64,000 bases of DNA, taken from contig CAMYKB010000003.1 of the NCBI GenBank assembly GCA_947258875.1, positions 12,358 to 76,357 on the forward strand, given 5' to 3'. Under the pieces are notes generated by a model. It was not told the origin of the DNA and made no database searches. It worked only from the letters and a program-made list of their open reading frames with translations. Of the stretch, positions 3,423-27,126 are shown in pieces. Position 1 is the stretch's first letter. Every line of letters begins with the position of its first letter. Made by a program: the position numbers and the translations under genes. The stretch is from an uncultured Gammaproteobacteria bacterium (GTDB lineage: Bacteria > Pseudomonadota > Gammaproteobacteria > CAMYKB01).

Positions 3423-4469
3423 ATGAACGTGCTTCATCGCCAACAGTTCATCGCATTATTGTTGTGCCTGATCATTTCGGCACTTGTCTTTGCTGGTTCC
3501 GCGCGTGCTGGACATGACGGCGCCGCCTATCATGAGTTCTCAGCTGATGCCCGGCAACAGGGCCGCGAAGCGCATCTTGCTTTTGCCTGGACTTACGGTT
3601 TCTATGAAGAGCCTAAGGTTCTGAATTACTTGCGTTCAGTCGGGGCGCGTGTCACTGAGCGCCTGCCTTACCGCATCAGGTTTTATATCCTCGATACAGA
3701 TGATGTCAATGCCTATGCAGCCCCTGGCGGCTGTATTTATGTCACGCGGGGCATGTTGGTACATTTAAATTCTGAGGCTGAGTTGGCAGCGGTGCTGGGT
3801 CATGAACTGGCGCATGTCATGGGTGATATCGGTGGGCTTGATGAGGTGTCCAGGAATACCTTGCGTGCAATGCTCGATGACGGTGCTGAGTTAAATCTTA
3901 GTAATACGGGCGACACTCAGGCACAACCCGATATGTTGCATACTAGGATGCGCAGATACGAGTTGGAGGCGGACCGGATATCGTTCGAGTTGCTGGTGCT
4001 GAGAGGCTATAACGCGCGTGCTCTGATCGATGTAATTCGCATGTTTGACGATTATGACCGCATGGTTAATGACATTCCTAAATCACATGCGCCACACCAT
4101 CAGGGGCTGGTGCACCTGTCCAACATTCATCCCGATAATCAGCGGCGCATTATGATGCTGCAGGAGGCTGTGTCTCGTTTCGATGCACAACATGCTGAAG
4201 ATGGCCGCGGCCGTTATCTGGCAATGATTGAGAATATCCGCTTTGGTAATCAGCCCAATTTAAAGGCAACGGATTCCGCATCGGATTTTCTGCAGAGGCA
4301 TGAAGTACGCAAGTTAAAACTGCTGCGTGTAGAAGGTGGTGCGCGTTATGCCGATCTGGCTGCTGACAGTAGTCTGGGGGATTCTGCCGAAGCCGTGTTG
4401 CGCACCCTGAATCGCGCTTATCCTGTGGGAGAACCTATATCAGGCGAATTTATCAAAATAATCGAATAG
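3423..4469 (+). CDS. M48 family zinc metallopeptidase (secreted)
   Basis: HEXXH motif LGHELAHVMGD. Signal peptide present. Conserved C-terminal tail LRTLNRAYPVGEP shared with the downstream paralog. Confidence 0.8.
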   Translation: MNVLHRQQFIALLLCLIISALVFAGSARAGHDGAAYHEFSADARQQGREAHLAFAWTYGFYEEPKVLNYLRSVGARVTERLPYRIRFYILDTDDVNAYAAPGGCIYVTRGMLVHLNSEAELAAVLGHELAHVMGDIGGLDEVSRNTLRAMLDDGAELNLSNTGDTQAQPDMLHTRMRRYELEADRISFELLVLRGYNARALIDVIRMFDDYDRMVNDIPKSHAPHHQGLVHLSNIHPDNQRRIMMLQEAVSRFDAQHAEDGRGRYLAMIENIRFGNQPNLKATDSASDFLQRHEVRKLKLLRVEGGARYADLAADSSLGDSAEAVLRTLNRAYPVGEPISGEFIKIIE

Positions 4470-4877
4470 CCTGAGATCACAGAAATTCAAGCCGCTAGGG
4501 TTGTTTGTTGATGATATTGTGAACTACTGCAAATTTTTCTGTTTTAGCGTCCCTAAACCTTGCCATAGACCATCAAAAGTACATACTGATATTCGAAGCC
4601 TCCCGGACAATAAGTTGTGTTGGTGGGTTTGAAACGTCGACCGCGGATACCTACCGGTATTCGCGGTTTTTGTTGGCCGGGTTGCGGGGTTATTGTTCAC
4701 TGGGTTGGTGTACCCCACTACCGGAATATCAACATATTCTGAAATGCTGTGGTGTCATCAGGATGACTCACCACTTGTACCGTTAATTGATCCGCTGATC
4801 CGCTGCCAGGGTACTTGGGTAGTGGAATACGGTAGATTGAAGGTTCTCAAAAACATTCTGTTTGGGGAGTATCTGCG

Positions 4878-5924
4878 ATGCGTTGGTTTATAGCTTGCAC
4901 TTGTTTGCTACTGACCGCCTGTGCCACAAGCAATAATGCATTGCAGCCCACTTCACTGGCACCCACCCGTGCTTATGATGCGGCCGATCAGCATCGCAAT
5001 GCTGAGGCCAACGAGCGCTTCAACGAGCTATTCGGCTTCTATGAAAACAAAGCGTTGCATCATTATGTGCGCGCAGTAGGTTCGCGAGTCAGCGCGCACC
5101 TGCCCTACGATTTCAAATTTATTATTCTCGATACGGATTACGTTAATGCCTTTTCGGTGTCGGGTGGAGATATCTATATTACACGCGGCATGTTGGCGCA
5201 TCTCGCTACCGAAGCCGAACTCGCAGCCGTGTTGGCGCATGAGGTTGCTCATGTTGTAACGCAGCACAGTGTGCGGAACCATCAAACTATTCCCGCCACA
5301 CCTAAATTTACCAAGTTTTTCGCGAACTGGTCCGGTACGCAAAAATTTGAGGACGGTGTCAGACAAGGACGGACTTCCGGGGCGGTGCGCGGCGCAGCTC
5401 AGCAAGACGAATTAATGGCCGATCGCCTGGCCATCGATTACCTGAAAAAGAGTGGTTACCAGACTTCCGCCGTGCTGGGTATGTTGCGCCTGATCGAAAG
5501 TGTGCAGCAGCTTGAAAAAGAGCTGGCGACTTATGTTGAAAGCCCAAAATTTAACGGTCAGATGCTTACTGGCCATCCCGCTATCGGGCAACGTTATGCT
5601 GAAGTGGCCAAGTGGACCGAAACCGCGGATGTTGTGCAGAATCAGCGAGATCGTAAGCGTTACCTGGACATCATTGAAGGTATGGAATATGGCAACGATA
5701 TTCAAGATCCGCGCATGTATGCCTTGGGAACCAATGACATGCAACAGCAGCAGTCACAGCAGTTGCGCATCCAAGTGGTTGCAGCGGGTGATGGCGAAAC
5801 ATACGCCGAGCTATCCAGGTATTGCCGCCTGCAAAACAATGCCGAAGCCATAGTACGTACCCTGAATAGGGCCTACCCTGAGGGTGAGCCACAGCCGGGC
5901 CAGCTCGTCAAGATCGTCAAGTAA
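4878..5924 (+). CDS. M48 family zinc metallopeptidase, lipoprotein (tandem paralog of 3423..4469)
   Basis: Lipobox LLTACATS. HEXXH motif LAHEVAHVVTQH. Same length (348 aa) and shared C-terminal motif VRTLNRAYPEGEP. Confidence 0.8.
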   Translation: MRWFIACTCLLLTACATSNNALQPTSLAPTRAYDAADQHRNAEANERFNELFGFYENKALHHYVRAVGSRVSAHLPYDFKFIILDTDYVNAFSVSGGDIYITRGMLAHLATEAELAAVLAHEVAHVVTQHSVRNHQTIPATPKFTKFFANWSGTQKFEDGVRQGRTSGAVRGAAQQDELMADRLAIDYLKKSGYQTSAVLGMLRLIESVQQLEKELATYVESPKFNGQMLTGHPAIGQRYAEVAKWTETADVVQNQRDRKRYLDIIEGMEYGNDIQDPRMYALGTNDMQQQQSQQLRIQVVAAGDGETYAELSRYCRLQNNAEAIVRTLNRAYPEGEPQPGQLVKIVK

Positions 5925-7307: not shown

Positions 7308-8267
7308 TTAGTACTCAAACGTATCCTGTTGTTTTTTCAGTTTTTTAACCTGGTTCTCGATTGCCGGGATATAGCGCAAATACTCCACCAGGGCATCGAT
7401 ATCGTCGTCAGTGAGATGTTGTAGGCTGTTGTCGACGACCTCTGCCATGAGGCTACCGGTGAAATCACCATCGGGTGTCATGCCCTGTTTAAGGAAGCTA
7501 TGCAAGTCGTCAGCTGACCAGTTGCCGATGCCTGTTTTTTTGTGTGGGGTGATATTAGGAATGGTTTCTCCATCGGGCCCGTTTCTGGTGCCCGCATAAA
7601 ACATCTTTGCATTCAGTGCGCCGCGTGCATTACGTGGCGTATGACATTCCCCGCAATGTGCGATGGCGTTGGCAAGATACGCGCCTCGGTTCCAGATTTC
7701 ATTCTGGTCAGGGGCCGCTTGAAACTCGCCGGGCTTGAAGTACAGCTTCTGCCATGCCCAGTTGACCAGGCGTAAGCGCAGATACCATGGCAGCACGTGC
7801 GCCTTGTTGGCTTGATTAACAGATGGCAGGCCTTGCAGGTAGGTGAATATGACGGCCATATCCTGTGTTTGCATCTGGTGATACGAAGTATAGGGAAACA
7901 CCGGATAGTAGTAACGGCCCTTGGGGTCTATCCCGTAGCGCAGGGCGCGGATAAAATCACGCAGTTCCCAGTTGCCTATGCCGGTTTCTGTATCGGCCGT
8001 AATGTTAGGCGAATAAAACACGCCCAGATCAGTTTCAATGCGTCGCCCACCGGCGAGTGGAAGGCCGTTATTGTCGTCGTCGGTATGACAACCCAGGCAG
8101 CCTGCGGCGTTGAATATATATTCGCCTTGGCCGATTAAGTCGTTGTGATCAAGTAACTCTGGAGATGCGATGGGCCGCAAGCGCGGCCAGATCAGCGCAT
8201 CAAAAGAAGCCCATGCAACAACGAGTAGCAGGGGCCATAAAATAACACGGCGTAGTTTACGCAACAT
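7308..8267 (-). CDS. Dihaem c-type cytochrome (alcohol/gluconate dehydrogenase cytochrome-subunit-like)
   Basis: Two CXXCH motifs (CLGCH, CGECH), each followed by GIGNW segments. N-terminal TM/signal anchor. Confidence 0.75.
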   Translation of the reverse strand: MLRKLRRVILWPLLLVVAWASFDALIWPRLRPIASPELLDHNDLIGQGEYIFNAAGCLGCHTDDDNNGLPLAGGRRIETDLGVFYSPNITADTETGIGNWELRDFIRALRYGIDPKGRYYYPVFPYTSYHQMQTQDMAVIFTYLQGLPSVNQANKAHVLPWYLRLRLVNWAWQKLYFKPGEFQAAPDQNEIWNRGAYLANAIAHCGECHTPRNARGALNAKMFYAGTRNGPDGETIPNITPHKKTGIGNWSADDLHSFLKQGMTPDGDFTGSLMAEVVDNSLQHLTDDDIDALVEYLRYIPAIENQVKKLKKQQDTFEY

Positions 8268-8322
8268 CAATAATTAAGGGGAGTAGGATCACTTGTGATC
8301 CACTCCCCGTAATACAATTTGA

Positions 8323-8787
8323 CTATTCTTGTTTTTCGCGAAAATCCTTGTGACAGCCTTTGCAGGATTTGCCCAGTGCCTGGAATTTGGCGCCTATTGC
8401 TTCCTTGTTTCCGGATCCTGCAGCTTGCGCAAATTCATTTGCGGCCTTTGCTGACGCATCAGCGGCTTTTTTGAAGTCGTCCCATTTCTCCCAGACTTCG
8501 GGCTTGGCGCGTGTCGGGGTATCACCAAAGTCGGAACCTTCAGGGAAAAGCGCGGTGATCTCTTTCGATAAGTTTGCAATCGCGTCAGCGTGCATTTGTA
8601 AATGGCCCTCGGGGTTGACCTTGCCTTGTGCGATCTGGGCGGCTGCGCCGGTATGTCCGCCGAGTGCCTTCATCATAGCCTGTCGATACTTGATGCTGTT
8701 CTCTGGGCTGTCTCCAGCATAAGCAGCGGTTGTGCAAAACGACACTGCAGGCAGTGTAAGAGAAATAATAAGACGACTGATGTTCAT
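8323..8787 (-). CDS. Cytochrome c' (class II cytochrome c)
   Basis: Signal peptide. Four-helix-bundle-like sequence with a single C-terminal CKGCH. GGAGAGGAGAAC RBS before the ATG at 8787. Confidence 0.7.
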   Translation of the reverse strand: MNISRLIISLTLPAVSFCTTAAYAGDSPENSIKYRQAMMKALGGHTGAAAQIAQGKVNPEGHLQMHADAIANLSKEITALFPEGSDFGDTPTRAKPEVWEKWDDFKKAADASAKAANEFAQAAGSGNKEAIGAKFQALGKSCKGCHKDFREKQE

Positions 8788-8857
8788 GGTGTTCTCCTCT
8801 CCTTGTAGCAGATATTTAGTTCTCACTTACGAAATAACCAGACTCACTGGTTGTCGG

Positions 8858-9358
8858 TTACATGCCAATCTTGATCAGTTCAACATCAAATATCAGTGTG
8901 GCATTCGGACCAATCAGCTTACCGGCGCCGCGTTCGCCGTAGGCAAGTTCTGGCGGGATAAACAGGCGATGTTTGCCGCCTTCCTGCATCAGTTGCAAGC
9001 CTTCAGTCCAGCCTTTGATAACGCGATTGAGTGGAAAGCTTGCGGGTTTGCCGCGGCTGTAAGAGCTGTCGAACTCAGTGCCGTCAATCAAAGTGCCGCG
9101 GTAATGCACGGTGACCGCGTCAGTCACCTGCGGTGAGGCGCCAGTTCCTGGTGTTAGTACCAAATATTGCAGGCCGCTCGCTGTGGTGACAACGCCCTGT
9201 GTTTTTGCATTCTCGGCGAGAAAAGCCGCGCCAGCATCCAGGGGCGCTGATTGACTCTGCATTACCTGGTCTTGTCCATTGTCCTGGGTGCCGCAAGCGG
9301 CCTGGGTGGTTAACATAAACAGTGCCAGCAAGCTGGAGGTTATCAGGGGCTTTTTCAT
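8858..9358 (-). CDS. FKBP-type peptidyl-prolyl cis-trans isomerase, lipoprotein
   Basis: Lipobox TTQAACG. FKBP core [43 protein letters not shown]...[10 protein letters not shown]. Confidence 0.85.
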
Positions 9359-9527: not shown

Positions 9528-10055
9528 TCAGCCTTGGCTCAGTCGCGTGGAAAGCTCGCGGGCGGCACGGTTCTGGTTGCGCGAACGTTCATCGCGCATG
9601 GCATCGACCAGCACCAGCAGTTCATATAGACCGCTATCATCCATGGCGGCGTCGGGCACGGATTTATACAGTGGCGAAAATGCGTAGCCCCGCACAGGGC
9701 CCCTAGGGTGCGGCCATACCGGTGGCAGGTCCTCGTTGGGTTTGTCGCCGCCGGCCAGCGGTGGCCCCGCATAACTGGTCGGTACGCCGAGAGTCAGTTC
9801 ACCGCGATCCGGTGGGAAGGCGAACTTGATGCCATGCACCAGGAACTCCTGCAGGGCCATGATGACGGGTCTGGGATGGGCGGCTTGTTCGCTGGATGCC
9901 GCCAACAGGCGGGCGCGGCGGCCGCGTTTGACCGCGGCATTAATCTCAGAGGCGCTCATATGCAGTTCAGCCGAGAGGCGCTGATATGACCAGGACTCCT
10001 GGCCCAAAGCCACGAGCTTGAGCGCCACCACGACATCCTGAGGCTTCAGAATCAT
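9528..10055 (-). CDS. Hypothetical protein, possible winged-helix regulator, divergent from the DUF4062 operon
   Basis: 175 aa. The N-terminal ~45 aa (VVVALKLVALGQESWSYQRLSAELHMSASEINAAVKR) look HTH-like. Shares a ~190 bp divergent intergenic region with the 10247 gene. Confidence 0.4.
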   Translation of the reverse strand: MILKPQDVVVALKLVALGQESWSYQRLSAELHMSASEINAAVKRGRRARLLAASSEQAAHPRPVIMALQEFLVHGIKFAFPPDRGELTLGVPTSYAGPPLAGGDKPNEDLPPVWPHPRGPVRGYAFSPLYKSVPDAAMDDSGLYELLVLVDAMRDERSRNQNRAARELSTRLSQG

Positions 10056-10246: not shown

Positions 10247-11599
10247 ATGTACCAGGTTTATATCTCGTCGACTTATACAGATCTGCAGGATTTCCGTGCT
10301 ATCGCGGCCAAGGCTGTGCGTCATCTGCAGTGCCGCGCGGTCGCGATGGAGGACTACCTGGCCAGCGATGAGCGCCCGCTCGACCGCTGTCTGTCGGATG
10401 TGCGCGCCAGTAATGTGTATGTCGGTTTGTTCGCCCGGCGCTATGGCTTCACACCGCCCGGCCATGACAAGAGCGTCACCCACCTGGAATATGAGGAAGC
10501 CGGCCGGGCTGGTATACCGCGCCTGATATTTATCCTCGATGAGGCGGTGGACTGGCCGGATTCAAACTGTGATCCAGATCCTTCAGCGATCCGGCAACTG
10601 CGCACAGCACTACAGGAAAAGCACCTCGTCAGTACCTTTCGCAGTGGCGATGAGCTTGATGCCCGCCTGACGGCTGCGCTGAGCCAGGAATTGCTGAAGC
10701 GCGGCGGCAGTGGCAAGGTCGAAATACCGGAATTATTGCCCTATATGAGTGACCGCAGCCGGCAGCGTGACCAGTTGGCCGATGCGCTGGATGTCCACCT
10801 CGACAAGCGGCCACGGCGGCCCTTTGTCGCGATCGTCTATGGCGATGAACGCGAGGCGCACAGCGCCTTCCTGGAACGGCTGGAGCGGGTGACGTTCCCC
10901 GATCTGCTCGGGCTGAGTGCGGAAGCAGGGCCGGTGCATCATCTCGATCTGCGCTGGAGCGAACCTGGAGGTTCCCTGGACGAACGCGAACGACGCCTGC
11001 AGTGCCGTCTTTCCGAAAGCCTGACCGGCGAGCGCCGCGCGGATACACAGACCATGGCACAGGAACTTGCCCGGCACCGCTGCGCGGTGATGATTTCCAC
11101 CTCGATTCTGAGTGCCGACTGGCAGGCGGACGAGGCGAAACTCGTGCAACACTGGCTCAAGCTGTGGAAGGCCTGGCCGGACCTGCCACCTGGTCAGAGG
11201 TTGGTCATTGTATTGAGTTTTCATCTTAAGGACTGTTCGCAGGCCTCGTTCTGGGCGCATCGCAAACTCATCAAGAAGAATCGATGCGTCTGCGAATTCG
11301 TGACCGAACTCGAGCGGCTTGCCGGTGACGATCTATCGCTTGTAAGCCTCGACAGGCTGGAAGCTATACGCGAGTCTGATGTGCTGAACTGGCTGGAAGA
11401 GCATGCCGGGAAGTTCTGCCGTGAATCCCGTGGTGCGATCCGTGACCCACTGGTGCTCGCAGAACAGCTCAAGCCCTGGCTGCGCGAATTTTTTCGCAAG
11501 GAGGGTGTAGCGGACGAATCGGGTGGTATTCATATGGAGGAGCTGGCGCGTGAACTGCGGCGCCAGCTGCACCGCTGTTTAAACGAAGGAGGAATCTGA
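10247..11599 (+). CDS. DUF4062 (TIR-like) domain protein with C-terminal degenerate P-loop/STAND-like region
   Basis: N-terminal MYQVYISSTYTDLQDFRAIAAKAV...NVYVGLFARRYG is the DUF4062 signature. GGGAGCGG RBS before the ATG at 10247. Segment PFVAIVYGDEREAHSAFLERL looks like an NTPase strand-1/P-loop position lacking GK[ST]. Stop is 3 nt before the next gene. Confidence 0.7.
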   Translation: MYQVYISSTYTDLQDFRAIAAKAVRHLQCRAVAMEDYLASDERPLDRCLSDVRASNVYVGLFARRYGFTPPGHDKSVTHLEYEEAGRAGIPRLIFILDEAVDWPDSNCDPDPSAIRQLRTALQEKHLVSTFRSGDELDARLTAALSQELLKRGGSGKVEIPELLPYMSDRSRQRDQLADALDVHLDKRPRRPFVAIVYGDEREAHSAFLERLERVTFPDLLGLSAEAGPVHHLDLRWSEPGGSLDERERRLQCRLSESLTGERRADTQTMAQELARHRCAVMISTSILSADWQADEAKLVQHWLKLWKAWPDLPPGQRLVIVLSFHLKDCSQASFWAHRKLIKKNRCVCEFVTELERLAGDDLSLVSLDRLEAIRESDVLNWLEEHAGKFCRESRGAIRDPLVLAEQLKPWLREFFRKEGVADESGGIHMEELARELRRQLHRCLNEGGI

Positions 11600-11602
11600 C
11601 CC

Positions 11603-12598
11603 ATGGCAAACGCCAACTGGTATCAAGGCACGGGAGCACAAAGCACAACGGCGGTCGACCTGCCGGCATCGCTACTGGATCGGCACGCCAATCCGGCAGG
11701 CTATTTGGCTGATCCCGGTCTCGTAGACGCGGTCAACGTCGCGCTGCATCTTGGTCAACCCCTGCTGTTGACCGGGCAACCAGGTACCGGCAAGACCCAG
11801 CTCGCCAACAGCCTCGCCTGGGAACTCGGCTACGAGCCGTTGCTCAAGTTCGAGGCCAAGTCGACCAGCGTTGCGCGCGATCTGTTCTACACCTACGACA
11901 CCCTGGGCCGCTTCCACGCCGTGCATACCGGCCAGGGCGCTGCCGATAGCCTCGACTATATCCGCTTCAACGCCCTGGGGCTGGCGATCCTGCGCGCCAA
12001 CGATCCCGCCGACGTGGCCCAGCTGCTGGCCGATAATACGCAACATACCGGGCAGCAGCGCTCGGTGGTGTTGATCGATGAAATCGACAAGGCGCCGCGC
12101 GATTTCCCCAACGATCTATTGAACGAAGTGGAGGGCATGTATTTCAGGATCCCCGAGCTCGGCAATGCGACCGTGACCTCGGCGCCTGAGTTGCGGCCGA
12201 TCCTGGTGCTGACCAGTAATTCGGAAAAGAACCTGTCCGAAGCCTTTCTGCGGCGCTGCGTCTTCTACGACATCCCCTTTCCTGATCGCAAGCGTCTCAC
12301 CCACATTGTGCACTCGCGGCTGGGCGAGGCGATTACGGGGCAGGGGGCGCTGCTGGAGGATGCACTCAACCTGTTCGAACGCCTGCGCGATCCGGCCAGT
12401 GGCCTTCATAAGAAACCTTCGACGGGCGAATTGCTTGCCTGGCTGCAGGTACTTGTCACGCATTCGCAAGACAACGATGACTACATCCGCACTGCAGCCA
12501 TGGTCGAGCCGGCGCTTGCTGCGTTGATCAAGACCACCGAAGACCGGCCGAAAGCGCGCGAACTGCTCAAGGACTGGTTGAAAACGAAACCGGCGTGA
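11603..12598 (+). CDS. MoxR-family AAA+ ATPase
   Basis: Walker A LLTGQPGTGKTQLA. Walker B VVLIDEIDKA. Sensor/Arg finger region LVLTSNSEKNLSEAFLRRC. Stop codon overlaps the GTG start of the next gene (GTGA). Confidence 0.9.
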   Translation: MANANWYQGTGAQSTTAVDLPASLLDRHANPAGYLADPGLVDAVNVALHLGQPLLLTGQPGTGKTQLANSLAWELGYEPLLKFEAKSTSVARDLFYTYDTLGRFHAVHTGQGAADSLDYIRFNALGLAILRANDPADVAQLLADNTQHTGQQRSVVLIDEIDKAPRDFPNDLLNEVEGMYFRIPELGNATVTSAPELRPILVLTSNSEKNLSEAFLRRCVFYDIPFPDRKRLTHIVHSRLGEAITGQGALLEDALNLFERLRDPASGLHKKPSTGELLAWLQVLVTHSQDNDDYIRTAAMVEPALAALIKTTEDRPKARELLKDWLKTKPA

Positions 12599-15500
12599 GC
12601 ACGACCTCCGGCAACACGTCGATTGATCCCTCTGTCGAACCGGGAGACGCGGTAACGCTTGATGGCGACAACCTGCTTTCCCTGCTCGATAGCCTGCGAC
12701 ATGACGGGTTTCCCATCGGCGTTAAGGAATATATCACCGCACAGGAAGTCGCCATCGCCTGCAGTGATGATTATGGCATCGACCCAACGCGGCTACGCAA
12801 CTGGCTGGCGCCGGTCCTGTGCACTAACCCCGACGAACAGAGATTGTTTTACCAGCGCTTCGCCGACTGGTGGGTGCAGCGGCAACCGGTAACCGCTATA
12901 CACACGGTTGAACCAGCGCCGGTAAAAACCGAGCTTGACGAAGATGTACAACGCGCACGTCCCTGGAAGTGGGTGGCACTTGCGGTCGGGTTGATTGCAG
13001 TAGCAGTGCTTGTTCCGCCGCTGCTGAAGCAGCCCGAAAATATTACACCGCCGCCAGTCGTGTCGGGGACCGAACCATCGCAGCCAGTGCGTCCCGACCC
13101 GTCTGTTTCGGTTGAGCAGGAGCCGGTTGGGCCGCAATTGCTCGTCACGGGTGAGGTTAGGGATATTGATGGACGGGTGATTGACGGCGCGACGGTGGTA
13201 GCGGTGAAGGAGTTGAAAGGACATGATGACCATGTTTGGTCTATAAACTTCAGCCCGGATGACACACGCGTGGTTACGGCGTCAAGAGATAAAACAGCGC
13301 GCATCTGGGAGGCAGTCAGCGGGCGCGAGCTTGCACGATTGGCGCATGATAAGTGGATCCAGTCGGCCGTTTTCGGTCCGAATGGCAGGCGCGTGCTCAC
13401 GGCGTCACTAGACGGCACAGCGCGTATCTGGGATGCTGTCAGCGGGCGCGAGCTTGCACGATTGGTGCATGATGGTTGGGTCAGTTCAGCCGTTTTCGGT
13501 CCGAATGGCAGGCGCGTGCTCACGGCGTCACTAGACGGTACTGCACGCATCTGGGACGCGGATAGCGGGCGCGAGCTGAGGCGATTGCCGGGTACGGAAG
13601 GGATCCTTTCCGCTGTGTTTAGCCCGGATGGCAAGCTAATTGCCACAAACGGCGTTGGCGCGAAGCTCCTGCACTGGGCCGGTAGCGACTCCACCGGCAA
13701 CTTCGATCTCACCTCCAACCTGATCGGCGGCACCCGGCTCCGGGTTTCCCACCCTGACTATCAGGATGCCTCATTGCACGATATACCCGATGGTTTCGGC
13801 AAGTTAACTGTCGAGGCCAGCCTGGCGCCACGCCCGGCACAGTGGCTGGAGGTATTTATACGCAATCGTGAGCTGACCCGTGTCACGCTCACTCTGCTGC
13901 CATTGCTGGTTGTTACCGCCTGGTGGTTGTGGCGGCGCAAACGTCGGCAGCTGATCCTGGAGCGGCGCACGGTACGCAACGTTGACGCGCTTGCAGGTGT
14001 TGCGATGCCCGAGCCGCAGCACAACCTGTATCGCGACGAGTCCTTTGTGCGCGCACGCATCGAGGCGCGGCGGCACCAGGCAGGCGGGCAAGGCGATCTC
14101 GATGCTGATGCCACTGTCGACGAAACGGTGCGGCAGCTCGGCTGGTTCTCGCCGGTTTACAAGACGCGTCTGCGCCTGCCGGCCTATCTGGCGTTGATCG
14201 ACCGCAGCGGCTTCCGCGATCAGCAGGCACATCTGATCGACGAATTCCTCGACTGTCTGGAAGAAGGTGGCGTGACGGTCGACCGTTATTACTTCGATCG
14301 CGATCCACGCATGTGTGTCACAGCAGTGAGTGGCGACAGCACCCGGCGCGCGGTGCGTGAACTCGCCGGCCGTTATCCGCAGCATCGCCTGTTGCTGTTT
14401 AGCGATGGCAGTGGACTGCTTGATCCCGTGACCGGCCGGCCTGCAACCTGGACAGAACTGTTTTCCGCCTGGCGCGAACGTGCGCTGATGACACCGGTGC
14501 CGGCCTTTCACTGGTCATCACGCGAGGTCGAGCTGGCGCGGTTGGGTTGTAGCGTGTTACCCGCGACACCTGAGGGTCTGTTGGCCTTTGTCGAACAGCT
14601 GGATGTGCCGGACAGTATTGTGCTGCCGCCAACGACGCACTGGCGTGCGCCATTCCCCGAAATCATCGCGGCGCATCCGGCGCGTTGGTTGCAACGCAAT
14701 GAACCGCAGCCGGAGGACAGTGACGAACTGCTGCGTCAGCTGCGGCGTTATCTGGGTGACGACAGTTACCGCTGGCTGTGTGCGCTGGCTGTTTATCCCG
14801 AACTCGACTGGTACCTGACGCTGTATCTTGGTTTGCATCTGCAGCGTGAGAATGGCACGCCGGTACTCGACGAAACGGCGCTCCTGAGTCTGGTGCGTCT
14901 GCCCTGGCTGCGACGCGGCAACATGCCTGACTGGTTGCGCCTGCGTCTCATGGCCGAACTGTCCAGCGATGATGAAAACACCGTGCGCGGGTTTTTGCGC
15001 GAACTGTTGCGCGCCCGACTGGAGGCGCCCGGTAGTCGCTTCCGCCTGGATATCGCGCATCCATCCGACAACATGCAGCGGCGCGGCTGGACCCGGTTCT
15101 TTTCCGATCTGCTGCGTACCGAGCCTGATGATAGTCCGCTGCAGGATCGCGTATTCGTCAATTTTCTGCTCGGCAAGCGTCCGCAGCGCTTGCAGGTGCT
15201 GGCGCCGCGCAACTGGCATCGCTGGGTTTATGAACGGGGTTTGAGTGCATTGGGTTTGCGTGAACGCACAGGGTTGTTGCTGGCGGCCAGCACATCTGTG
15301 CTGCTGGCGGTCAGCGCCTTTTCGCTGATTGATCTTGCCAAGGCAATACAGGCGGGCGGTAACGACTCGCAGATTGTCCAGCGCGACTGGCAACCGGCGG
15401 ACGAGCAGGCTCCACCACAGATTAAAGATGTTTTCGTGGAGAAATTTGGTGGTGGCTCTGGTATTCGCTATTCAGTACGCGATCTCAAGCTCAACGGTGA

Positions 15501-16653
15501 GGGTAACAACATTCGCCTGGCACAGGGCGGTCAGGTGAAAGCGACTCTGGAAATCAATCACGACTGTCGCGAATGCGGCGGCGCCATCAATCAGATCATC
15601 GTTGGCCTGGCCGGTGAAGACAGGGCGCAGGCCTGCGTCTGGAACGGTGGGCAGTCCAGTCGCGGCTGGCAAACGGTATCGTTCACACTCAGGATTCCGC
15701 AAGCACCGGGGAGCTACGAGGTGCGTACCCGCTACGCCCAGGCCTACAACTGTAAAGATGCAATCGGCTGGTGGAAGATAGACCGTTCCCAGGGACCAGG
15801 CGAGCAATCGACCATCGGCGTGGTGGTCGTTGAAGCTGTCTCGCAGCAAAACGATACCCGGCAGACGACAGCTAAACAACAGCCCAAGGCATCGGACGTC
15901 GTTGCAACGTTGAACGAAAAATGGCTCGCGAACGTCCTGCCTTTCTATAAAAAGGCTATCGAGGGACGTTATCCTTTCGATCTGAAAAGTGAGAAGAGCG
16001 TGACCTTGAAAGATTTCGGCATGTTCTTCGGTGAAGGCGGAATTGTGCAGCGCTTCACTGAACAAGAGCTGGCGCCCTACCTGGATACCTCGGGTGGTCA
16101 ATGGCGTTGGCGTGCTGAAGCGCAGGGTTTTTCAAGCGCATCATTAGTCGAGCTTCAACGCGCGAACCGCATCCGCGCAGCGTTCTTCCAGGACGGCGGG
16201 GAAATACCGTTGCTGCGGTTCAGCCTTAAACCCAGTCAACTCGACAAGAAGGCTGTTCGCTTCACGCTGGAGATTGACGGGCAACGCCTTCAATATGCGC
16301 ATGGCCCGAAACGTACCACAGACATAACATGGCCGGGCAACACCAGGCTCAAGCGCGCACTGTACACGTTTGAAGGTCTGGATGGTAAAAGCGCGAGCGT
16401 TAAGGAGGAGGGTGCGTGGGCATGGTTGAAGATTCTGGACCAGGCCAAGATTAGTGCAACGAGGGGCCAGGATGTTTCGCGTGTAACCTTCAGTAAGAAT
16501 AGTCTTTCCGCTAGCTTCGATCTGCAGACAAGCAAAGGAATAAACCCTTTCGACCAAGACTTGCGGAAATTCCATTGTCCGCAGCGTTTAAGTTCAGGTG
16601 GCAGCAGTGAACTGTCTCCGCCTCAGCCACCAACAATTATCAGATCGAAATAA
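12595..16653 (+). CDS. Large multi-domain membrane protein: TM – WD40 repeats – TM – vWA-like – TM – IcmF/TssM C-terminal-like domain
   Basis: 1352 aa. TM helices at aa ~123-143, ~428-446 and ~893-912. Four WD40 blades, aa ~205-360 (GH...TASRDKTARIWEA, TASLDGTARIWDA x2). vWA-like strands LALIDRSGF and LLLFSDGSG. C-terminal ~230 aa contain GAWAWLKILDQAKI, IDGQRLQYAHGP...ITWPG and NPFDQDLRKFHCPQRL, patterns I recognise from the TssM/IcmF periplasmic C-terminal domain. Translationally coupled to the MoxR gene. Confidence 0.8.
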   Translation: MSTTSGNTSIDPSVEPGDAVTLDGDNLLSLLDSLRHDGFPIGVKEYITAQEVAIACSDDYGIDPTRLRNWLAPVLCTNPDEQRLFYQRFADWWVQRQPVTAIHTVEPAPVKTELDEDVQRARPWKWVALAVGLIAVAVLVPPLLKQPENITPPPVVSGTEPSQPVRPDPSVSVEQEPVGPQLLVTGEVRDIDGRVIDGATVVAVKELKGHDDHVWSINFSPDDTRVVTASRDKTARIWEAVSGRELARLAHDKWIQSAVFGPNGRRVLTASLDGTARIWDAVSGRELARLVHDGWVSSAVFGPNGRRVLTASLDGTARIWDADSGRELRRLPGTEGILSAVFSPDGKLIATNGVGAKLLHWAGSDSTGNFDLTSNLIGGTRLRVSHPDYQDASLHDIPDGFGKLTVEASLAPRPAQWLEVFIRNRELTRVTLTLLPLLVVTAWWLWRRKRRQLILERRTVRNVDALAGVAMPEPQHNLYRDESFVRARIEARRHQAGGQGDLDADATVDETVRQLGWFSPVYKTRLRLPAYLALIDRSGFRDQQAHLIDEFLDCLEEGGVTVDRYYFDRDPRMCVTAVSGDSTRRAVRELAGRYPQHRLLLFSDGSGLLDPVTGRPATWTELFSAWRERALMTPVPAFHWSSREVELARLGCSVLPATPEGLLAFVEQLDVPDSIVLPPTTHWRAPFPEIIAAHPARWLQRNEPQPEDSDELLRQLRRYLGDDSYRWLCALAVYPELDWYLTLYLGLHLQRENGTPVLDETALLSLVRLPWLRRGNMPDWLRLRLMAELSSDDENTVRGFLRELLRARLEAPGSRFRLDIAHPSDNMQRRGWTRFFSDLLRTEPDDSPLQDRVFVNFLLGKRPQRLQVLAPRNWHRWVYERGLSALGLRERTGLLLAASTSVLLAVSAFSLIDLAKAIQAGGNDSQIVQRDWQPADEQAPPQIKDVFVEKFGGGSGIRYSVRDLKLNGEGNNIRLAQGGQVKATLEINHDCRECGGAINQIIVGLAGEDRAQACVWNGGQSSRGWQTVSFTLRIPQAPGSYEVRTRYAQAYNCKDAIGWWKIDRSQGPGEQSTIGVVVVEAVSQQNDTRQTTAKQQPKASDVVATLNEKWLANVLPFYKKAIEGRYPFDLKSEKSVTLKDFGMFFGEGGIVQRFTEQELAPYLDTSGGQWRWRAEAQGFSSASLVELQRANRIRAAFFQDGGEIPLLRFSLKPSQLDKKAVRFTLEIDGQRLQYAHGPKRTTDITWPGNTRLKRALYTFEGLDGKSASVKEEGAWAWLKILDQAKISATRGQDVSRVTFSKNSLSASFDLQTSKGINPFDQDLRKFHCPQRLSSGGSSELSPPQPPTIIRSK
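13313..13560. repeat. Near-identical tandem ~123 bp nucleotide repeats encoding WD40 blades
   Basis: gtcagcgggcgcgagcttgcacgattgg(c/t)gcatgat...gccgttttcggtccgaatggcaggcgcgtgctcacggcgtcactagacgg occurs twice almost perfectly (13313-13435, 13436-13558), with a diverged third copy following. Confidence 0.85.
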
Positions 16654-16794: not shown

Positions 16795-17397
16795 CTAGGG
16801 CGCAAAGGACAGTGTGGAAAGTGCGCCCTGAATAATGTCTTTCGCCCGCGCATACTCATTGAAAAGGAATACTGAATAGGCATCCGCCTGTTCGTTTTTG
16901 TGGATCCCGATCAGTAGCGCCTGGCTGTAGCTAGCGGAAAATTGCGGGTCGACATCAAATACCGCTGCCGCGGCCCAGTTCGCGTTAAACAGCTCACGCG
17001 CCTGCGACTGCTGATATTCCGTATTCGGTGTATTTCCGCCATTCGACATCTGCGCGGTCAACGATTCAAACAGCAATGGAAAAAGATGGTTGGGTTCGGG
17101 CGCCGCATTGTGGGGGTCATTGTAATCAATAGAGATTCGCGCTAGTGGACGGATCACGAACCGTATCTCGAGTTCACCCGAGACATGTTTCAATGCACGT
17201 TCATAGTGAAGTACTGGATTGGCCGCGGGTTCAATGTCGGTAAAATCCGGGGGCGGCTCAAATCGCAGGCCGGATTCCTTAAGCAACTGTTCGAATAGTG
17301 CCTGGGAAGATTCCGCAGAACTTGAGGCGGTTGTCGTCAGCGCAGGCGCGACTAGCAGCAACACCAACAGCCACTGTCTTGATGGCACACCTGTCAT
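16795..17397 (-). CDS. Hypothetical secreted protein
   Basis: 200 aa with signal peptide. 4 bp overlap with the upstream TPR gene, giving an operon with the multihaem cytochrome. Confidence 0.5.
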   Translation of the reverse strand: MTGVPSRQWLLVLLLVAPALTTTASSSAESSQALFEQLLKESGLRFEPPPDFTDIEPAANPVLHYERALKHVSGELEIRFVIRPLARISIDYNDPHNAAPEPNHLFPLLFESLTAQMSNGGNTPNTEYQQSQARELFNANWAAAAVFDVDPQFSASYSQALLIGIHKNEQADAYSVFLFNEYARAKDIIQGALSTLSFAP

Positions 17398-18155
17398 GAA
17401 AGATCTGCTTTATTTGCCGGTACATCCTCTGCTTGCCATCGCTGTAATAGTGCTTTGGCGGCATCCTTCCATTCTTCAGAAGGCGCTATCTCCAGAAAAC
17501 GCTTGAGGTCGGCGATGGCCAGTGCCCGGTTGCCCATTACATCATGCACTGAAGCACGGTTGAAATATGGTGCTGCAGAGTGTGGATCCGCCGCAACACA
17601 GGCATCAAAGTCCTCCAGCGCCTGCGGGTATCTGCCTGCGTTAAAGGCAAGCGAACCGCGGTTGAAACGCGCAGCGATAAACCCGCTGTCTGTTTCGATG
17701 GCTTTATCGAGGTCTGCCATCGCCTCATCAATGCGGCCGAAATTGCGGTAGGCCTGGGCGCGATTGGTGAGAAACATCGGGTTGTGCGCATCCAGCTCCA
17801 GCGCTCTGTTAAGGTCGGCCAGTGCCGCCGAACTACGTCCCTGTTCCAGTAACAGGCTGCCGCGCACGCCATGCAAGTTTGCGTTATCCGGATACATTTC
17901 TACGGCCTGGTTGAGGCTATCTATGGCTTGCGTCGCACGGCCCTCAGCCAGGTGCTGCAGGGCGACCTGAACATGCTTGTCCGGCGTCAGGCTGGCGTGA
18001 GGATCATAGCTGCTGTGCGGGCGCACACGCGGGGCATCGGTCCCGGTATTAGGGATTTGCTGAACGATGGCTTCAGACTCGACTTGTGCGTCAGCAGTCG
18101 ACTTACCGGGGCCGCTGTCACAAGCAGACAGGCTTATGGTGACGAGCGTCGCCAT
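17394..18155 (-). CDS. TPR-repeat lipoprotein
   Basis: Lipobox LVTISLSACDSG. Multiple TPR motifs (AxxxYxxGxxxEA pattern repeated). Start chosen at MATLV (ATG 18155) to avoid overlap with the cytochrome gene. Confidence 0.6.
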   Translation of the reverse strand: MATLVTISLSACDSGPGKSTADAQVESEAIVQQIPNTGTDAPRVRPHSSYDPHASLTPDKHVQVALQHLAEGRATQAIDSLNQAVEMYPDNANLHGVRGSLLLEQGRSSAALADLNRALELDAHNPMFLTNRAQAYRNFGRIDEAMADLDKAIETDSGFIAARFNRGSLAFNAGRYPQALEDFDACVAADPHSAAPYFNRASVHDVMGNRALAIADLKRFLEIAPSEEWKDAAKALLQRWQAEDVPANKADLS

Positions 18156-18223
18156 AAGCCTTGCCTGAATCACTATCGAGCGCCTGGCAGCAGAGTGTTT
18201 TCTCAAAAATAGTCTCACCCTGC

Positions 18224-20605
18224 TTATTTGGTCTCGCTGTAGGCCTTGAGCAATTTGTTCATTAGCTCGATGTGCTGCGCGTCGTTCAGCTGACCTTTGG
18301 TGGACACTTTTGCCCACAACTCTGCATTGGTCATTTCACGATGGCAGCCCATGCACAATCCGGTACGATCCATGGCGTCACGCATCTCTTTGGGTAATGC
18401 GCGCGATAACGGCCAGTGTGTGCCGACTGTCTGAACCTGTTGGTCATCCTTGATAATCGTCGACCAGTCAAAATCCAGGGCCTCAATCTTGGGAATCTGG
18501 ATCTGGTAGTTCCTGGGGATGACTTTACCGGTCTTCTGATCAATCAGGTCTTCAACGATATCCACCGGATAACGCGTCTGGAATACACCACCGGAAATAC
18601 CGTACCCCATTGCCTTCGGATTGTTATGGCAGGACTCGCAGGTACGGGCCTTGCGCTGTGCCGAATGCGGTTGCACCGGTGCCATATCAAGTGCCAACGG
18701 AGTACGCTCCTGTCCCAGCTCTTTCTGCTCGTCGTACGATAAAGCTATCTGGTCGAGAGCAACGGTTCTGCCGTCACGCGCTTTAACGGTGTAAACGATC
18801 TGGCAGCCCGGCATTAATGGGGTAACACGGCCCTCACCGTTGATACCCAGTACCGGTTCTTCCCAACGCAGGTAAGCACGAGTTTCATACACCTTACCAG
18901 GACTCTGAATACCTTTTACGCCTAGCGGTGACTCAGCGGTTGAACCGTCCGGGTTGCGTTGACTGCCGGATGCAATCCAGTCGGTATCATGTTTAGGTTT
19001 ACCATCTTTGTCTTTGCCGTAGTCAACCTGTACATGGCAGCCATAACATTGTGGCACCCATGATGCGTGGCAGGCATAACATTCCAGGCTTTCGGCATGT
19101 TTTTGGACCCGGCTCATGGCCACCATGGCATCCGGACTCTTCCACGCGTTGTCGATCTGCAGCTGTTTAAGCAACGGAACTTCAAAGTCATTGCCGGTTG
19201 CCGAATGCAACATGGCCTTCTTGCCATCCTTGACAACGTTGCCGAATGGATTGCCACGGGCGGTCTTCAGATAACCATCCTTCTTGTCGTACAGCGTGGC
19301 GAAGGCTGCGGTTTCCGGCAGTGGGCTCGTGGCCAGACCACGCGCTTTGCCGGTCAGTGGTTGGTCAAATTCCTCGCCATGTCCCAGCGGTAATTCCCAG
19401 GGGAATTGCTCTGGCGTGCCATGGCAGTCCTGGCATTCAATTTCCACCTGTGCCAGCGTGGTGCCCGGAATATTGCCATCACCATGCATGTCGATCGATG
19501 TATGACAATCCTGGCATAGCAGGCCACCTTCGGGATTCCCCGGGCGGCTCTTGATCTGGTGATGCAGATCATCAGAGATAAACAGGTACTGCTTGGTGTG
19601 CAGTTTTGGCTGTTTTTCGCCTTTCTCGTTGAACGGCGAACCGTAAGGGAACTCCATCAATCCCTGATACGTCACGCCGATACGCTTGCCGCGATTGTGG
19701 CAGGAGTTGCAGGTCTCGACGGGGATACCCGAATACTCAATACCACCATGAGTCACTTTGGACTTGCGAGTAGACTGTATCTGGTGGGTCAGCATGTGGC
19801 CCTTTTCTGTCTTGTCGATGGTCGGGTCATTACCTTCGTAGATGCCTTCATTGCCATAGGCTATGTGGCAGGCTGAACACCCCTGACCGCGGTAATCACC
19901 GCGTTTTTCACGGCCCTTGACTGTAACGTGGCAGCGTTGGCATTGCTGGCGCTGGTAGGTAAAGCCAGCAAGCTTCGGGTTTTTCTCGATGTCTTCGACC
20001 GATGGGTTGGGTATTTGCGACAATTCAGTGGGGAACTGTTCCTTGTGCGCGGCTATCATGTCCTTCATGTAGGCCTTGTAGTCATCGGTACCCACAGCAG
20101 GTACAGGTCCGTCACCGTCCTTGATATCATAATTACCCCAGGGAACCTTATGATTCTGCACCTCTTCGATGCCCCAGGTGTGCAGGTTGCCCTGAATCTT
20201 ACCGGCTTCGGTATTCATTAAGGATTTTTCCAGACGTTCAGAATAGCCCAGGTGGCAGGCGCTCTGACCACAGGTAAATTTGTTGACATCCATCGCCCCG
20301 GGATCTGGGTAAAACGTTTGCGGGCCGTTGGCTTGCTTTAGTGTCGCCGGTGAGCCGCTGTGAGCCGCTTTTGCCTCGCTTGCGCCTGGGTTGCCGCCAT
20401 GGCACATGACGCAACCTTGGCTATCCCCGTGCGATGAACCCAACGCCTTGATCATTGCCATCATGGCGCTGCCTTCCTGGCGTATCTGTTCGAGGCCGTT
20501 GTGACAACTCATGCAGCCTTCGCCGGCTCCGATCTTGGCATCTGCAGTGAACGTGATAAATAGCGTAACGAGGAATAAAGCTAGTGCCCTTGCGGTCGTT
20601 CCCAT
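18224..20605 (-). CDS. Multihaem c-type cytochrome (~12 haem-binding motifs), secreted
   Basis: 793 aa with signal peptide and GAGAGGG RBS. 11 CXXCH motifs (CMSCH, CVMCH, CQRCH, CSACH, CNSCH, CQDCH x2, CYACH, CYGCH, CESCH, CMGCH) plus one CX4CH (CGQSACH). Confidence 0.85.
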   Translation of the reverse strand: MGTTARALALFLVTLFITFTADAKIGAGEGCMSCHNGLEQIRQEGSAMMAMIKALGSSHGDSQGCVMCHGGNPGASEAKAAHSGSPATLKQANGPQTFYPDPGAMDVNKFTCGQSACHLGYSERLEKSLMNTEAGKIQGNLHTWGIEEVQNHKVPWGNYDIKDGDGPVPAVGTDDYKAYMKDMIAAHKEQFPTELSQIPNPSVEDIEKNPKLAGFTYQRQQCQRCHVTVKGREKRGDYRGQGCSACHIAYGNEGIYEGNDPTIDKTEKGHMLTHQIQSTRKSKVTHGGIEYSGIPVETCNSCHNRGKRIGVTYQGLMEFPYGSPFNEKGEKQPKLHTKQYLFISDDLHHQIKSRPGNPEGGLLCQDCHTSIDMHGDGNIPGTTLAQVEIECQDCHGTPEQFPWELPLGHGEEFDQPLTGKARGLATSPLPETAAFATLYDKKDGYLKTARGNPFGNVVKDGKKAMLHSATGNDFEVPLLKQLQIDNAWKSPDAMVAMSRVQKHAESLECYACHASWVPQCYGCHVQVDYGKDKDGKPKHDTDWIASGSQRNPDGSTAESPLGVKGIQSPGKVYETRAYLRWEEPVLGINGEGRVTPLMPGCQIVYTVKARDGRTVALDQIALSYDEQKELGQERTPLALDMAPVQPHSAQRKARTCESCHNNPKAMGYGISGGVFQTRYPVDIVEDLIDQKTGKVIPRNYQIQIPKIEALDFDWSTIIKDDQQVQTVGTHWPLSRALPKEMRDAMDRTGLCMGCHREMTNAELWAKVSTKGQLNDAQHIELMNKLLKAYSETK

Positions 20606-21013: not shown

Positions 21014-22558
21014 TTATTCCACTAACGCGGCCTGGATCACGCCGACGCGAATGCTGTTAAGCACGGCCTTATCTTTCGCCGGGCCCAACCCTGTAGGAAC
21101 CACTACGGCCTTGCCCGCGGCGAGGCTGCGAATATCGCGGGTGATCTGGCGGCGCTTTCCCTGTGCATCCGGGTATTGTACGGCGACCTTAACATTGCGC
21201 ACTGCATAGGATGTCGGGTTTTGTACCTGCACCACCACATAGCCGTTCTGATTGAGACCAACCCGGGTCTTAATGTAATTACCCGGGTTTTGCGGCAGAT
21301 CCAGTCGCAGCAGTGATTGCGAGGCCTGCTTGCCGGGTTCGGAGTTGGAACCCGCTGCTGCCTTGTAATATTTCAGGGCGCTGGCACGATCACCGGCGGC
21401 CAATGTCAGGTTGCCGAGTGAATTCAGCGCGGTCGCGGTGGGCAACAATTTAACACTTTGCTCGAGATCGCTGCGTGCACCGCTGCGATCACCAAGACGC
21501 TCGCGTGTGAGGCCGCGCTGTACGTAGTAATGAAAAAACTGATTGTTATACTGCAACGCCTTGTTGTAGTCGGCGAGTGCTGATTTGAGGTTGTTTTGCT
21601 GAAACTTTGCGTCGCCGAACAACGAATGAAATTGTGCCTCTCGCGGTTCCATACGAATGGCTTTTTGTGCCAGAGTCATCGCCTTACGGGTATCGCCCTT
21701 GGCCAGGGCTTTGCGGCCCTCGTCGTGGGCCTTGTAGGCTTCGCGGCTGCGTTTGATGTGCGCTATCTTGCTTTGATAGCGCTGTGTGCCCAGTTCTCCA
21801 CCTGATGGCAGGCTTTTCGCGTGTTCGATGTTGTTATCGACACGTTCCTGTGACGGCGGGTGGCTGGCAAACAGGCCGGATAACCAATCTGACCGCCGGC
21901 CTTCGGACAGGCGTACGAAGGTTTCTTGTAGGCTGATGGCGGCACGCGGATCGTAACCGGCTTTGGACATGTAGTTCATGCCATAAAAATCGGATTCGCG
22001 TTCCGCGTCACGGCCGTATTTTTGATTAAGCAGGCCCGCCGCAAGTTGCGCGCCACCGACAGCGAGATTGGCGTAATCGCTATCGCGTGCGGCAATGCCG
22101 GTTGCCATGATGGCGCCTTGCAGCAGCATGCCGCGTTCCATACCTTTGGCGCCATGACGTGCGGCGGCATGTACCACTTCGTGACCCAGTACCGCGGCAA
22201 CTTCAGCTTCGTTATTGAGTTCCACCAGCAGTCCACGGTTGACGGCGATTTTGCCGCCGGGCAGCGCCCATGCGTTAGGTGTGGAGTTGTTGAGTACCAC
22301 GAATTCATAGGGTAATTGCCGGTCACTGACGGCGGCCAGGCGGTTGCCGATACTCTGCACATAACGCGTCAGTTCCTGATCGACGTTGTATTGGCCACCC
22401 TGCATCTGCTGGCTCACCAAGTAGTTCTGTTTGCCCAGCTGGATTTCCTGGGCTTCAGACACCAATGTGAGTTCGCGTTCTCCCGTTACAGGATTAACGG
22501 CACAGCCCTGTAACGCAACCGCCGCAAGTATGAATGCATAAAGGATGTTTCGCATCAT
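21014..22558 (-). CDS. BepA/YfgC-like M48 metallopeptidase with C-terminal TPR domain, lipoprotein
   Basis: Lipobox ALQGCAV. HEXXH motif LGHEVVHAAARH. TPR-like C-terminal half. Start at MMRNILY (22558), preceded by GGGGA. Confidence 0.8.
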   Translation of the reverse strand: MMRNILYAFILAAVALQGCAVNPVTGERELTLVSEAQEIQLGKQNYLVSQQMQGGQYNVDQELTRYVQSIGNRLAAVSDRQLPYEFVVLNNSTPNAWALPGGKIAVNRGLLVELNNEAEVAAVLGHEVVHAAARHGAKGMERGMLLQGAIMATGIAARDSDYANLAVGGAQLAAGLLNQKYGRDAERESDFYGMNYMSKAGYDPRAAISLQETFVRLSEGRRSDWLSGLFASHPPSQERVDNNIEHAKSLPSGGELGTQRYQSKIAHIKRSREAYKAHDEGRKALAKGDTRKAMTLAQKAIRMEPREAQFHSLFGDAKFQQNNLKSALADYNKALQYNNQFFHYYVQRGLTRERLGDRSGARSDLEQSVKLLPTATALNSLGNLTLAAGDRASALKYYKAAAGSNSEPGKQASQSLLRLDLPQNPGNYIKTRVGLNQNGYVVVQVQNPTSYAVRNVKVAVQYPDAQGKRRQITRDIRSLAAGKAVVVPTGLGPAKDKAVLNSIRVGVIQAALVE

Positions 22559-23321: not shown

Positions 23322-23329
23322 TATGGTAC

Positions 23330-27117: not shown

Positions 27118-27126
27118 GACGGCCCC

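Follow-up and report, generated by a model that had tools for sequence, protein, structure and literature searches.

Four MoxR-vWA ternary systems have been predicted from genomes by Kaur, Burroughs, Iyer and Aravind (eLife 2020, PMC7159879). In the second of these, the iSTAND system, a TIR, DRHyd, caspase, trypsin or EAD head is carried by an inactive STAND (iSTAND) protein, the MoxR ATPase is without VMAP-type extensions, and the vWA protein has a CoxE-like 4-helix N-domain, with N-terminal transmembrane (TM) segments in 28% of cases. Its tails are variable, FGS being the commonest and PEGA, OmpA, PASTA or Sel1 domains lying past a TM segment in an extracytoplasmic position, and a helical linker (vWA-L) joins the vWA domain and the tail (Kaur et al. 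2021). We describe here a three-gene locus at positions 10247-16653 of a 64-kb stretch of contig CAMYKB010000003.1 from an uncultured Gammaproteobacteria bacterium; the whole stretch is called the window below. The locus is a member of this known class, which is itself a computational prediction, and carries a new TssM tail and WD40 loop on its vWA component.

DUF4062 is a TIR-like NADase in the single-gene defence systems Swarozyc (KpSwz) and Evangelion (2026 preprints; bioRxiv 10.64898/2026.05.01.722283), and the characterised DUF4062 proteins deplete NAD+ directly and make ADP-ribose, not cyclic ADP-ribose (cADPR). In type VII Thoeris, pairs of TIR and SLATT proteins signal via cADPR. DUF4062, IcmF and TssM are not mentioned in Kaur et al. 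2020 or 2021, and neither IcmF nor DUF4062 was found in the supplement of Kaur et al., although that dataset may nonetheless contain the architecture. Both DUF4062 NADase preprints in turn leave MoxR, iSTAND and SLATT unmentioned.

The three-gene locus and its first two products

The genes lie on the + strand at 10247-11599 (gene 1), 11603-12598 (gene 2) and 12595-16653 (gene 3). The open reading frame (ORF) list allows gene 1 to start at 10223 or 10247; the public gene call uses the ATG at 10247, a GGGAG box lies 6 nt 5' of this ATG, and the exact 450-amino acid (aa) product is present in a public collection. Gene 1 stops at TGA 11597-11599 and gene 2 begins after a 3-nt gap at ATG 11603, with GAAGGAGG just upstream, while the GTG start of gene 3 at 12595 overlaps the gene 2 stop TGA (12596-12598) as GTGA. 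These junctions and the ORF list confirm the coupling of three genes described in the original prediction, which had been made from the sequence without database searches.

The gene neighbourhood check suggested there for the DUF4062-MoxR pair found the trio in at least 15 other loci (L001-L010, L012-L014, L016, L017, L026 and L087), with gene order and coupling unchanged. They include metagenome contigs (L001-L006), metagenome-assembled genomes (MAGs) of a gammaproteobacterium (L007), an unclassified organism (L008) and a deltaproteobacterium (L012), and six Acidobacteriota loci (L009, L010, L013, L016, L017 and L026); the trio spans Gammaproteobacteria, Acidobacteriota and Deltaproteobacteria. 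Compared with L005, the closest relative, the ratio of nonsynonymous to synonymous substitution rates (dN/dS) is 0.17 for gene 1, 0.13 for gene 2 and 0.23 for gene 3, indicating purifying selection on all three. The trio block has a GC content of 0.595 against 0.52 for the remaining window, and is a compositional outlier among 6.4-kb segments, the others having a mean of 0.516 (sd 0.016, maximum 0.547). Because order and coupling are conserved, the genes are under purifying selection and the block is a GC outlier, the three-gene unit is not a product of chance. No flanking repeats, tRNA or integrase were found at the island boundaries, and a promoter and terminator scan was uninformative.

The trio resembles the published class in its iSTAND protein, whose N terminus bears an enzymatic head, in a short AAA+ ATPase that is probably MoxR-type, and in a probable vWA protein with N-domain, TM segments, linker and variable tail, and the listed iSTAND-system features all occur in the trio or its homologues, the MoxR clade and the vWA domain as probable assignments. 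Heads are exchangeable on this scaffold: L088 has a caspase (Peptidase_C14) on iSTAND where gene 1 has DUF4062, and in L089 a CHAT protein is the alternative. It differs in its DUF4062 head, where TIR or DRHyd are listed, and in its TssM/IcmF C-terminal tail and periplasmic WD40 loop, neither of which is mentioned there. The pointer to NTP-dependent ternary conflict systems in the original prediction was right, and the iSTAND module of gene 1, which it had missed, fits that class. Its description of a candidate new three-gene system is not supported, as the iSTAND module places the trio in a class published in 2020 and the gene 3 core belongs to a family of 3461 clusters.

Gene 1 encodes a DUF4062 TIR-like head fused to an iSTAND module. 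Pfam places DUF4062 (PF13271) at residues 3-85 (E 2e-23, 82.8 bits), and a phmmer match of residues 2-144 to the DUF4062 NADase KpSwz (PDB 10wc; E 3.2e-6) supports a putative NADase domain at aa 1-150 (10247-10696). The KpSwz construct solved by cryo-EM was the E97A mutant, Glu97 being catalytic (PDB 10wc). Glu81 of gene 1, in T78-H-L-E81 (nt 10478-10501), aligns with the Ala in the T-E-K-A motif of the deposited chain; because this Ala is the E97A site, Glu81 is the putative counterpart of the catalytic Glu97, and it is invariant across 6 gene 1 orthologues. The TIR-like nature of DUF4062, put forward with reserve in the original prediction, has since been shown experimentally (bioRxiv 10.64898/2026.05.01.722283; PDB 10wc), and the gene 1 head is likely to be an NAD+-destroying enzyme. 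It shares with Swarozyc and Evangelion the DUF4062 domain and its conserved catalytic Glu. Each of those systems, however, consists of one protein, with a short stalk or AUX region, which recognises phage portal or replication intermediates directly; here DUF4062 forms the head of a 300-aa inactive STAND module, and an ATPase and a membrane protein are coupled to it.

The iSTAND module occupies aa 165-450 (10739-11596). The family model PF19995 matches residues 165-317 (E 3.5e-15, 57.2 bits vs a cut-off of 24) and also matches the gene 1 orthologues of L001-L006 and L087. The P-loop position, VAIVYGDEREAHSAF (nt 10826-10870), has no GK[ST]; it reads G199-D-E-R-E-A-H-S, without the Walker A Lys, and GDEREAH is invariant in 6 orthologues. 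Gene 1 is 76-81% identical to its orthologues in L001-L005 and 78% identical to that in L007.

Gene 2 encodes a 331-aa AAA+ ATPase (AAA_5/midasin-like) that passes the Pfam models AAA (E 2e-10) and AAA_5 (E 7e-9). Its Walker A (GQPGTGKT, 58-65), Walker B (VVLIDEID, 155-162), TSN sensor-1 (204-206) and RR (217-218) motifs are all invariant among 11 orthologues, and its top PDB sequence matches are midasin AAA modules. The original prediction had called it an unambiguous MoxR; the two Pfam models support an AAA+ ATPase of this kind, but the word was too strong, since MoxR-specific models stay below cut-off (bpMoxR, E 0.09) and placement in the MoxR clade leans on AAA_5, midasin similarity and genomic context. 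MoxR-type is a reasonable name on these similarities.

Two side observations concern this gene. Residues 151-322 (12053-12568) give a partial match to the NCBIfam model NF047784, MadB family AAA-type ATPase (E 2e-25), far below its cut-off (89.5 bits vs 475), and a literature search for MadB turned up unrelated proteins only. In a Marinacidobacterales genome (L010, 8109-12004) two ORFs together make up the ATPase, perhaps because of a frameshift or because the gene is a pseudogene, and DUF4062 stands in an ORF of its own, some 1.2 kb upstream of that for iSTAND.

Predicted layout and family of the membrane protein

Gene 3 encodes a 1352-aa protein which its domains, hydrophobic segments and homologues mark as a three-pass inner-membrane component, probably of vWA type. 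The hydrophobic segments (126-144, 427-445 and 894-912) separate an N-terminal domain (aa 1-125, 12595-12969), conserved across the family in phmmer searches, a first loop with WD40 repeats (aa 145-426, 13027-13872), a core (aa 446-893, 13930-15273), and a tail made of a β-sandwich (aa 942-1090, 15418-15864) and a TssM/IcmF C-terminal module (aa 1100-1332, 15892-16590). Positively charged residues lie on the cytoplasmic side of the membrane segments, as RARPWKW before TM1, WRRKRRQ past TM2 and LRERTG ahead of TM3. PASTA domains fill the loop 1 position in one homologue (P0051), and haem-c or TssM-type domains lie past TM3 in homologues. PASTA, haem-c and TssM-type domains function extracytoplasmically. 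Loop 1 and the tail are placed in the periplasm because of these domains and the positive-inside residues, and we infer a layout in which the N-domain and vWA core are cytoplasmic and the WD40 loop and tail periplasmic. Pfam, TIGR03348 and the hydrophobic segments thus bear out the DUF4062, AAA+, WD40 and TssM-like C-terminal parts and the three membrane passes of the original prediction.

An AF2 model of the core (pLDDT 75, pTM 0.73) has a vWA-like α/β domain (~520-670) followed by an α-helical domain (~689-810; helices 689-809) at the place of the vWA-L linker. Strand β1 (YLALI, 531-535) is followed by DRSGF and β4 (RLLLF, 598-602) by SDG, and a β2-β3 hairpin is present. The motifs that had been read as vWA-like strands, LALIDRSGF (532-540) and LLLFSDGSG (599-607), therefore sit on β1 and β4, the positions of the vWA DxSxS and TDG motifs. 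In a Foldseek search of the PDB with the core, the NorD chain of the NorQ-NorD complex came first (E 2.4e-3, probability 1.0), and no other match had a comparable E-value and probability combined. The best fold matches are the midasin MIDAS domain (metal ion-dependent adhesion site) and NorD; it is notable that the gene 2 ATPase resembles the midasin ring and the gene 3 core resembles the midasin MIDAS domain. On the predicted fold, the core probably contains a vWA domain. Likeness to NorQ-NorD, CoxD-CoxE and midasin AAA-MIDAS rests on a structural match of the gene 3 core and a sequence match of gene 2, while the trio differs in its degenerate MIDAS, a third iSTAND component, membrane anchoring and the lack of a linked metalloenzyme target.

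True gene 3 homologues share the N-domain and the 446-893 core and vary in loop and tail. The core family comprises 3461 clusters at 50% identity with E ≤ 1e-3, 1472 of them with E ≤ 1e-30, as counted in an exhaustive search of representatives; a word-indexed search with the core returned 5 proteins and badly under-reports the family. Repeats likewise mislead searches with the whole protein, in which WD40 proteins dominate and true homologues make up 11 of the 120 listed matches, and a PDB profile search with an alignment including the repeat columns found WD40 structures only. The N-domain is present in 132 of the 150 best family representatives (phmmer) and in loci L001-L026. It sits where Kaur et al. 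place the CoxE-like 4-helix domain, to which it may correspond.

Most of the wider family, judged by the same 150 representatives, is without the WD40 loop. In gene 3 the WD40 Pfam match (E 5e-31) covers repeats at about 190-360, with three full repeats and one partial, and a weak CarboxypepD_reg-like segment (aa 184-209; a partial Pfam match under cut-off) lies in the same loop. Three tandem 123-nt repeats (13249-13617) encode the blades, copies 2 and 3 being 79% and 69% identical to the first, and L005 gene 3 holds 131 extra residues at this point. The low number of blades suggests a deletion by recombination between repeats, which would leave the propeller incomplete unless it is completed by oligomerisation.

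The TssM-like module consists of a helical and a β domain, matched by IcmF_helical at 1104-1201 (E 1.6e-8) and IcmF_C at 1209-1313 (E 6e-26). The TssM model TIGR03348 is matched at model positions 933-1168 only (E 1.2e-66, 225.6 bits vs a cut-off of 388.15), and Pfam finds no ImcF-related N-domain in gene 3. The protein shares with TssM this C-terminal periplasmic module, but has neither the cytoplasmic NTPase nor the long periplasmic pillar, and neither its TM arrangement nor any part before residue 1100 is related to TssM. A TssM-like tail is rare: among the 150 best clusters of the family, 3 have one and the other 147 end in tails unrelated to it. Among homologues, these include FGE-sulfatase (L012, L017), four PASTA plus PEGA (P0051), Lcl_C, ricin lectin, TPR plus WD40, and multihaem cytochrome; many are lectin-like or binding domains.

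The β-sandwich, between TM3 and the TssM module, has four Cys residues and the motif NHDCRECGGAINQ; it has no Pfam match and gives weak C2-like fold matches only. Its pattern is NHDCxECGGAINQIIVGLAGE..AQxCxWxGG. The domain is found again, at 43-73% identity, in small proteins with a signal peptide, and is fused elsewhere to an OAA-family lectin with a weak DUF4062 (P0128), to B_lectin and DUF4241 (P0134), to DUF4476 and to pentapeptide repeats. This unnamed domain looks like a mobile extracytoplasmic binding module without a Pfam family.

One tail is unusual for a predicted immune protein: in a Blastocatellia MAG (L026, 12394-15423) the vWA component ends in a multihaem cytochrome c with several CXXCH motifs and matches to Cytochrome_C7 and c3.

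Proposed mechanism and rival explanations

Taking these features together, we think, with fair rather than strong confidence, that the locus encodes a chromosomal, horizontally acquired vWA-MoxR-iSTAND ternary conflict system in which gene 3 senses events at the envelope, the MoxR-type ATPase remodels the complex and the NADase is activated. The proposed order has four steps, of which the first describes what was found and the other three are proposals. In the predicted layout, gene 3 sits in the inner membrane, with the N-domain and vWA/linker core in the cytoplasm and two periplasmic arms, the WD40 loop and the β-sandwich plus TssM-C. The TssM C-terminal module reaches the outer-membrane lipoprotein TssJ in the type VI secretion system (T6SS). 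The periplasmic arms, which have no enzymatic features in WD40, β-sandwich or TssM-C, may then act as a sensor or anchor reporting an envelope event such as phage adsorption, injection or puncture. NorQ docks on NorD, and the midasin ring docks on its own MIDAS domain. In a comparable way the gene 2 AAA+ ring could dock on the vWA domain and remodel the complex using ATP. Gene 1 would be released or assembled as a result, its inactive STAND module serving as an oligomerisation scaffold, and the DUF4062 head (Glu81) would hydrolyse NAD+, arresting the infected or damaged cell.

For the order of events we favour that given by Doré et al. for ternary systems, in which the vWA protein is the sensor, MoxR transduces and the head of the third component executes. 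The periplasmic parts of gene 3 show 50-70% identity, compared with 82-90% for the cytoplasmic core, and this faster divergence would be in keeping with a sensor and lends support to the proposed mechanism.

A 151-aa two-TM protein of the SLATT_1/DUF4231 family is encoded directly after the trio in L001-L004 only (L001 15517-15972, L002 10278-10733, L003 13492-13947 and L004 9797-10252). These sister loci thereby recall type VII Thoeris, combining a SLATT gene with a TIR-like head, and suggest that a signal of the ADP-ribose type may be a further product of the head. The difference from Thoeris is that characterised DUF4062 enzymes give ADP-ribose and that the window has no SLATT gene; therefore only NAD+ depletion would be available here as output.

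Several results weigh against the envelope-sensing conflict system proposed here. Kaur et al. assign the roles in reverse, with the iSTAND protein as sensor and the vWA tail as effector, and no experimental study of any MoxR-vWA ternary system was found in the searchable literature. No defence genes occur among the 44 ORFs surveyed in the 64-kb window, and PADLOC, a check suggested in the original prediction, gave generic P-loop matches with no specific hit. The Pfam vWA models failed to pick up gene 3, 9 of its homologues or another 10 members of the family (the last 10 tested to E 1), leaving the predicted fold as the support for the earlier vWA claim. The MIDAS motif is degenerate (D536-R-S-G-F and S604-D-G), its first Asp being replaced by E or R in some relatives. 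The protein has 3-4 WD40 blades, against 6-8 or 15 in close full-length homologues. Finally, a tblastn search of the window with the L001 SLATT protein found no match, and the copy is perhaps partly disabled.

The opposite wiring, in the sense of Kaur et al. (2020), is the rival that fares best, and we give it a modest chance. Here the cytoplasmic iSTAND module would sense an invader molecule such as nucleic acid, MoxR would set the threshold, the extracytoplasmic vWA tail would serve as effector, with the cell wall or outer membrane as its target, and DUF4062 would only make a second messenger. This is the published model for iSTAND systems, inactive STAND modules having been proposed as nucleic-acid receptors by the same authors, and the SLATT pore of the sister loci fits a messenger-making head. 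It sits poorly, however, with periplasmic modules that lack enzymatic features, with the many lectin-like or binding tails of the family, with the direct NAD+ depletion by characterised DUF4062 proteins instead of signalling, and with a window that has no SLATT or other messenger receptor.

The TssM-like tail raises a second explanation, that gene 3 is a TssM paralogue which joins, regulates or monitors a T6SS membrane complex encoded elsewhere, with the MoxR protein as assembly chaperone. We regard this as improbable: only the last ~235 TssM residues are present, at a score well short of the TIGR03348 cut-off, the best bona fide TssM matches are 33-34% identical, the family core bears unrelated tails in nearly all representatives, and the window has no TssM NTPase domain. 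T6SS families are absent from the 44 ORFs surveyed in the window and from L001-L006. Membership of a T6SS was rejected on the partial TssM score and the lack of T6SS neighbours.

That the locus is a decaying remnant, having lost a SLATT partner and half of a WD40 propeller along with its function, seems slightly less credible still. The reduced blade number, the 131 extra residues in L005 and the missing SLATT gene would fit such decay, but the three ORFs are intact and translationally coupled, the catalytic and ATPase motifs are intact, dN/dS is low in each gene, L005 is likewise without SLATT, and the WD40 loop is missing from most of the wider family.

A housekeeping MoxR-vWA chaperone of the CoxD/E, NorQ/D or CbbQ/O type, maturing a neighbouring cytochrome or copper enzyme, is very unlikely: NorD is the top Foldseek match, the locus lies amid cytochrome c genes and near a copper-resistance cluster, and the L026 homologue ends in a multihaem cytochrome, but every related locus has other neighbouring genes (DUF4202, SelO and a kinase in L001-L004; FtsH in L087), with none matching the window cytochromes, the trio always comes with a DUF4062 or caspase head typical of conflict systems, the locus is a GC-rich island, and the MIDAS on which metal insertion depends is degenerate.

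Genomic surroundings and significance

The trio lies in an ordinary chromosomal region with a copper efflux/oxidase cluster, trpEGDC, a porin, ilvA and pepP. The copper-handling cluster (23989-37147) encodes a CusA-like RND pump, a CusB-like adaptor with HMBD and CusF domains, an outer-membrane factor, DUF411, a cytochrome c and a multicopper oxidase. Downstream of the trio, a 793-aa multihaem cytochrome with an MtrC/MtrF-like domain (18224-20605, -) adjoins a TPR protein (17394-18317), and on the other side of the island lie a cytochrome c' (8323-8826) and a dihaem-type cytochrome c (7308-8270). The original prediction had set the trio in this cytochrome-rich neighbourhood, with a divergent small putative regulator; a link to the neighbouring cytochromes was rejected given the variable flanks of the related loci. 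The supposed regulator, a 175-aa ORF at 9528-10055 (-) divergent from gene 1, was also rejected in that role, since none of the related loci encodes a homologue; without a Pfam match and with the highest local GC content (0.627), it is not a conserved partner but may be part of the same imported island. Tandem paralogue pairs occur at 3423-5924 and 22830-23884, namely two 348-aa M48 peptidases and two Slp-family outer-membrane lipoproteins, and a third M48 protein (M48-TPR) is found at 21014-22639. Among the related loci, L005 has a gene with MAP3K_TRAF_bd and TPR-S (sensor TPR) domains downstream of its trio (8296-9261). Such domains are typical of other predicted conflict systems.

MoxR-vWA ternary systems form a large set of predicted bacterial immune modules with eukaryote-like logic, and the locus described here is a tractable example, with a DUF4062 output that can be assayed as an NADase, a relative of solved structure and an intact ATPase. 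The clear inside/outside layout of gene 3 means that the dispute over sensor and effector between Kaur et al. and Doré et al. could be settled experimentally. The borrowed TssM-like arm is the unusual part of the locus; as a piece of the T6SS membrane complex re-used outside secretion, it bears on the evolution of envelope-spanning sensors. More speculatively, and we hold this only as a tentative suggestion, gene 3 may be a trans-envelope immune receptor whose tip, derived from TssM, docks on the outer membrane either by itself or via a TssJ-like lipoprotein, and which together with the WD40 loop and β-sandwich detects a breach, a phage or a T6SS structure before it reaches the cytoplasm and signals to the MoxR-gated NADase. 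If true, bacteria would have here an equivalent of a transmembrane pattern-recognition receptor, made in part from components of a secretion system.

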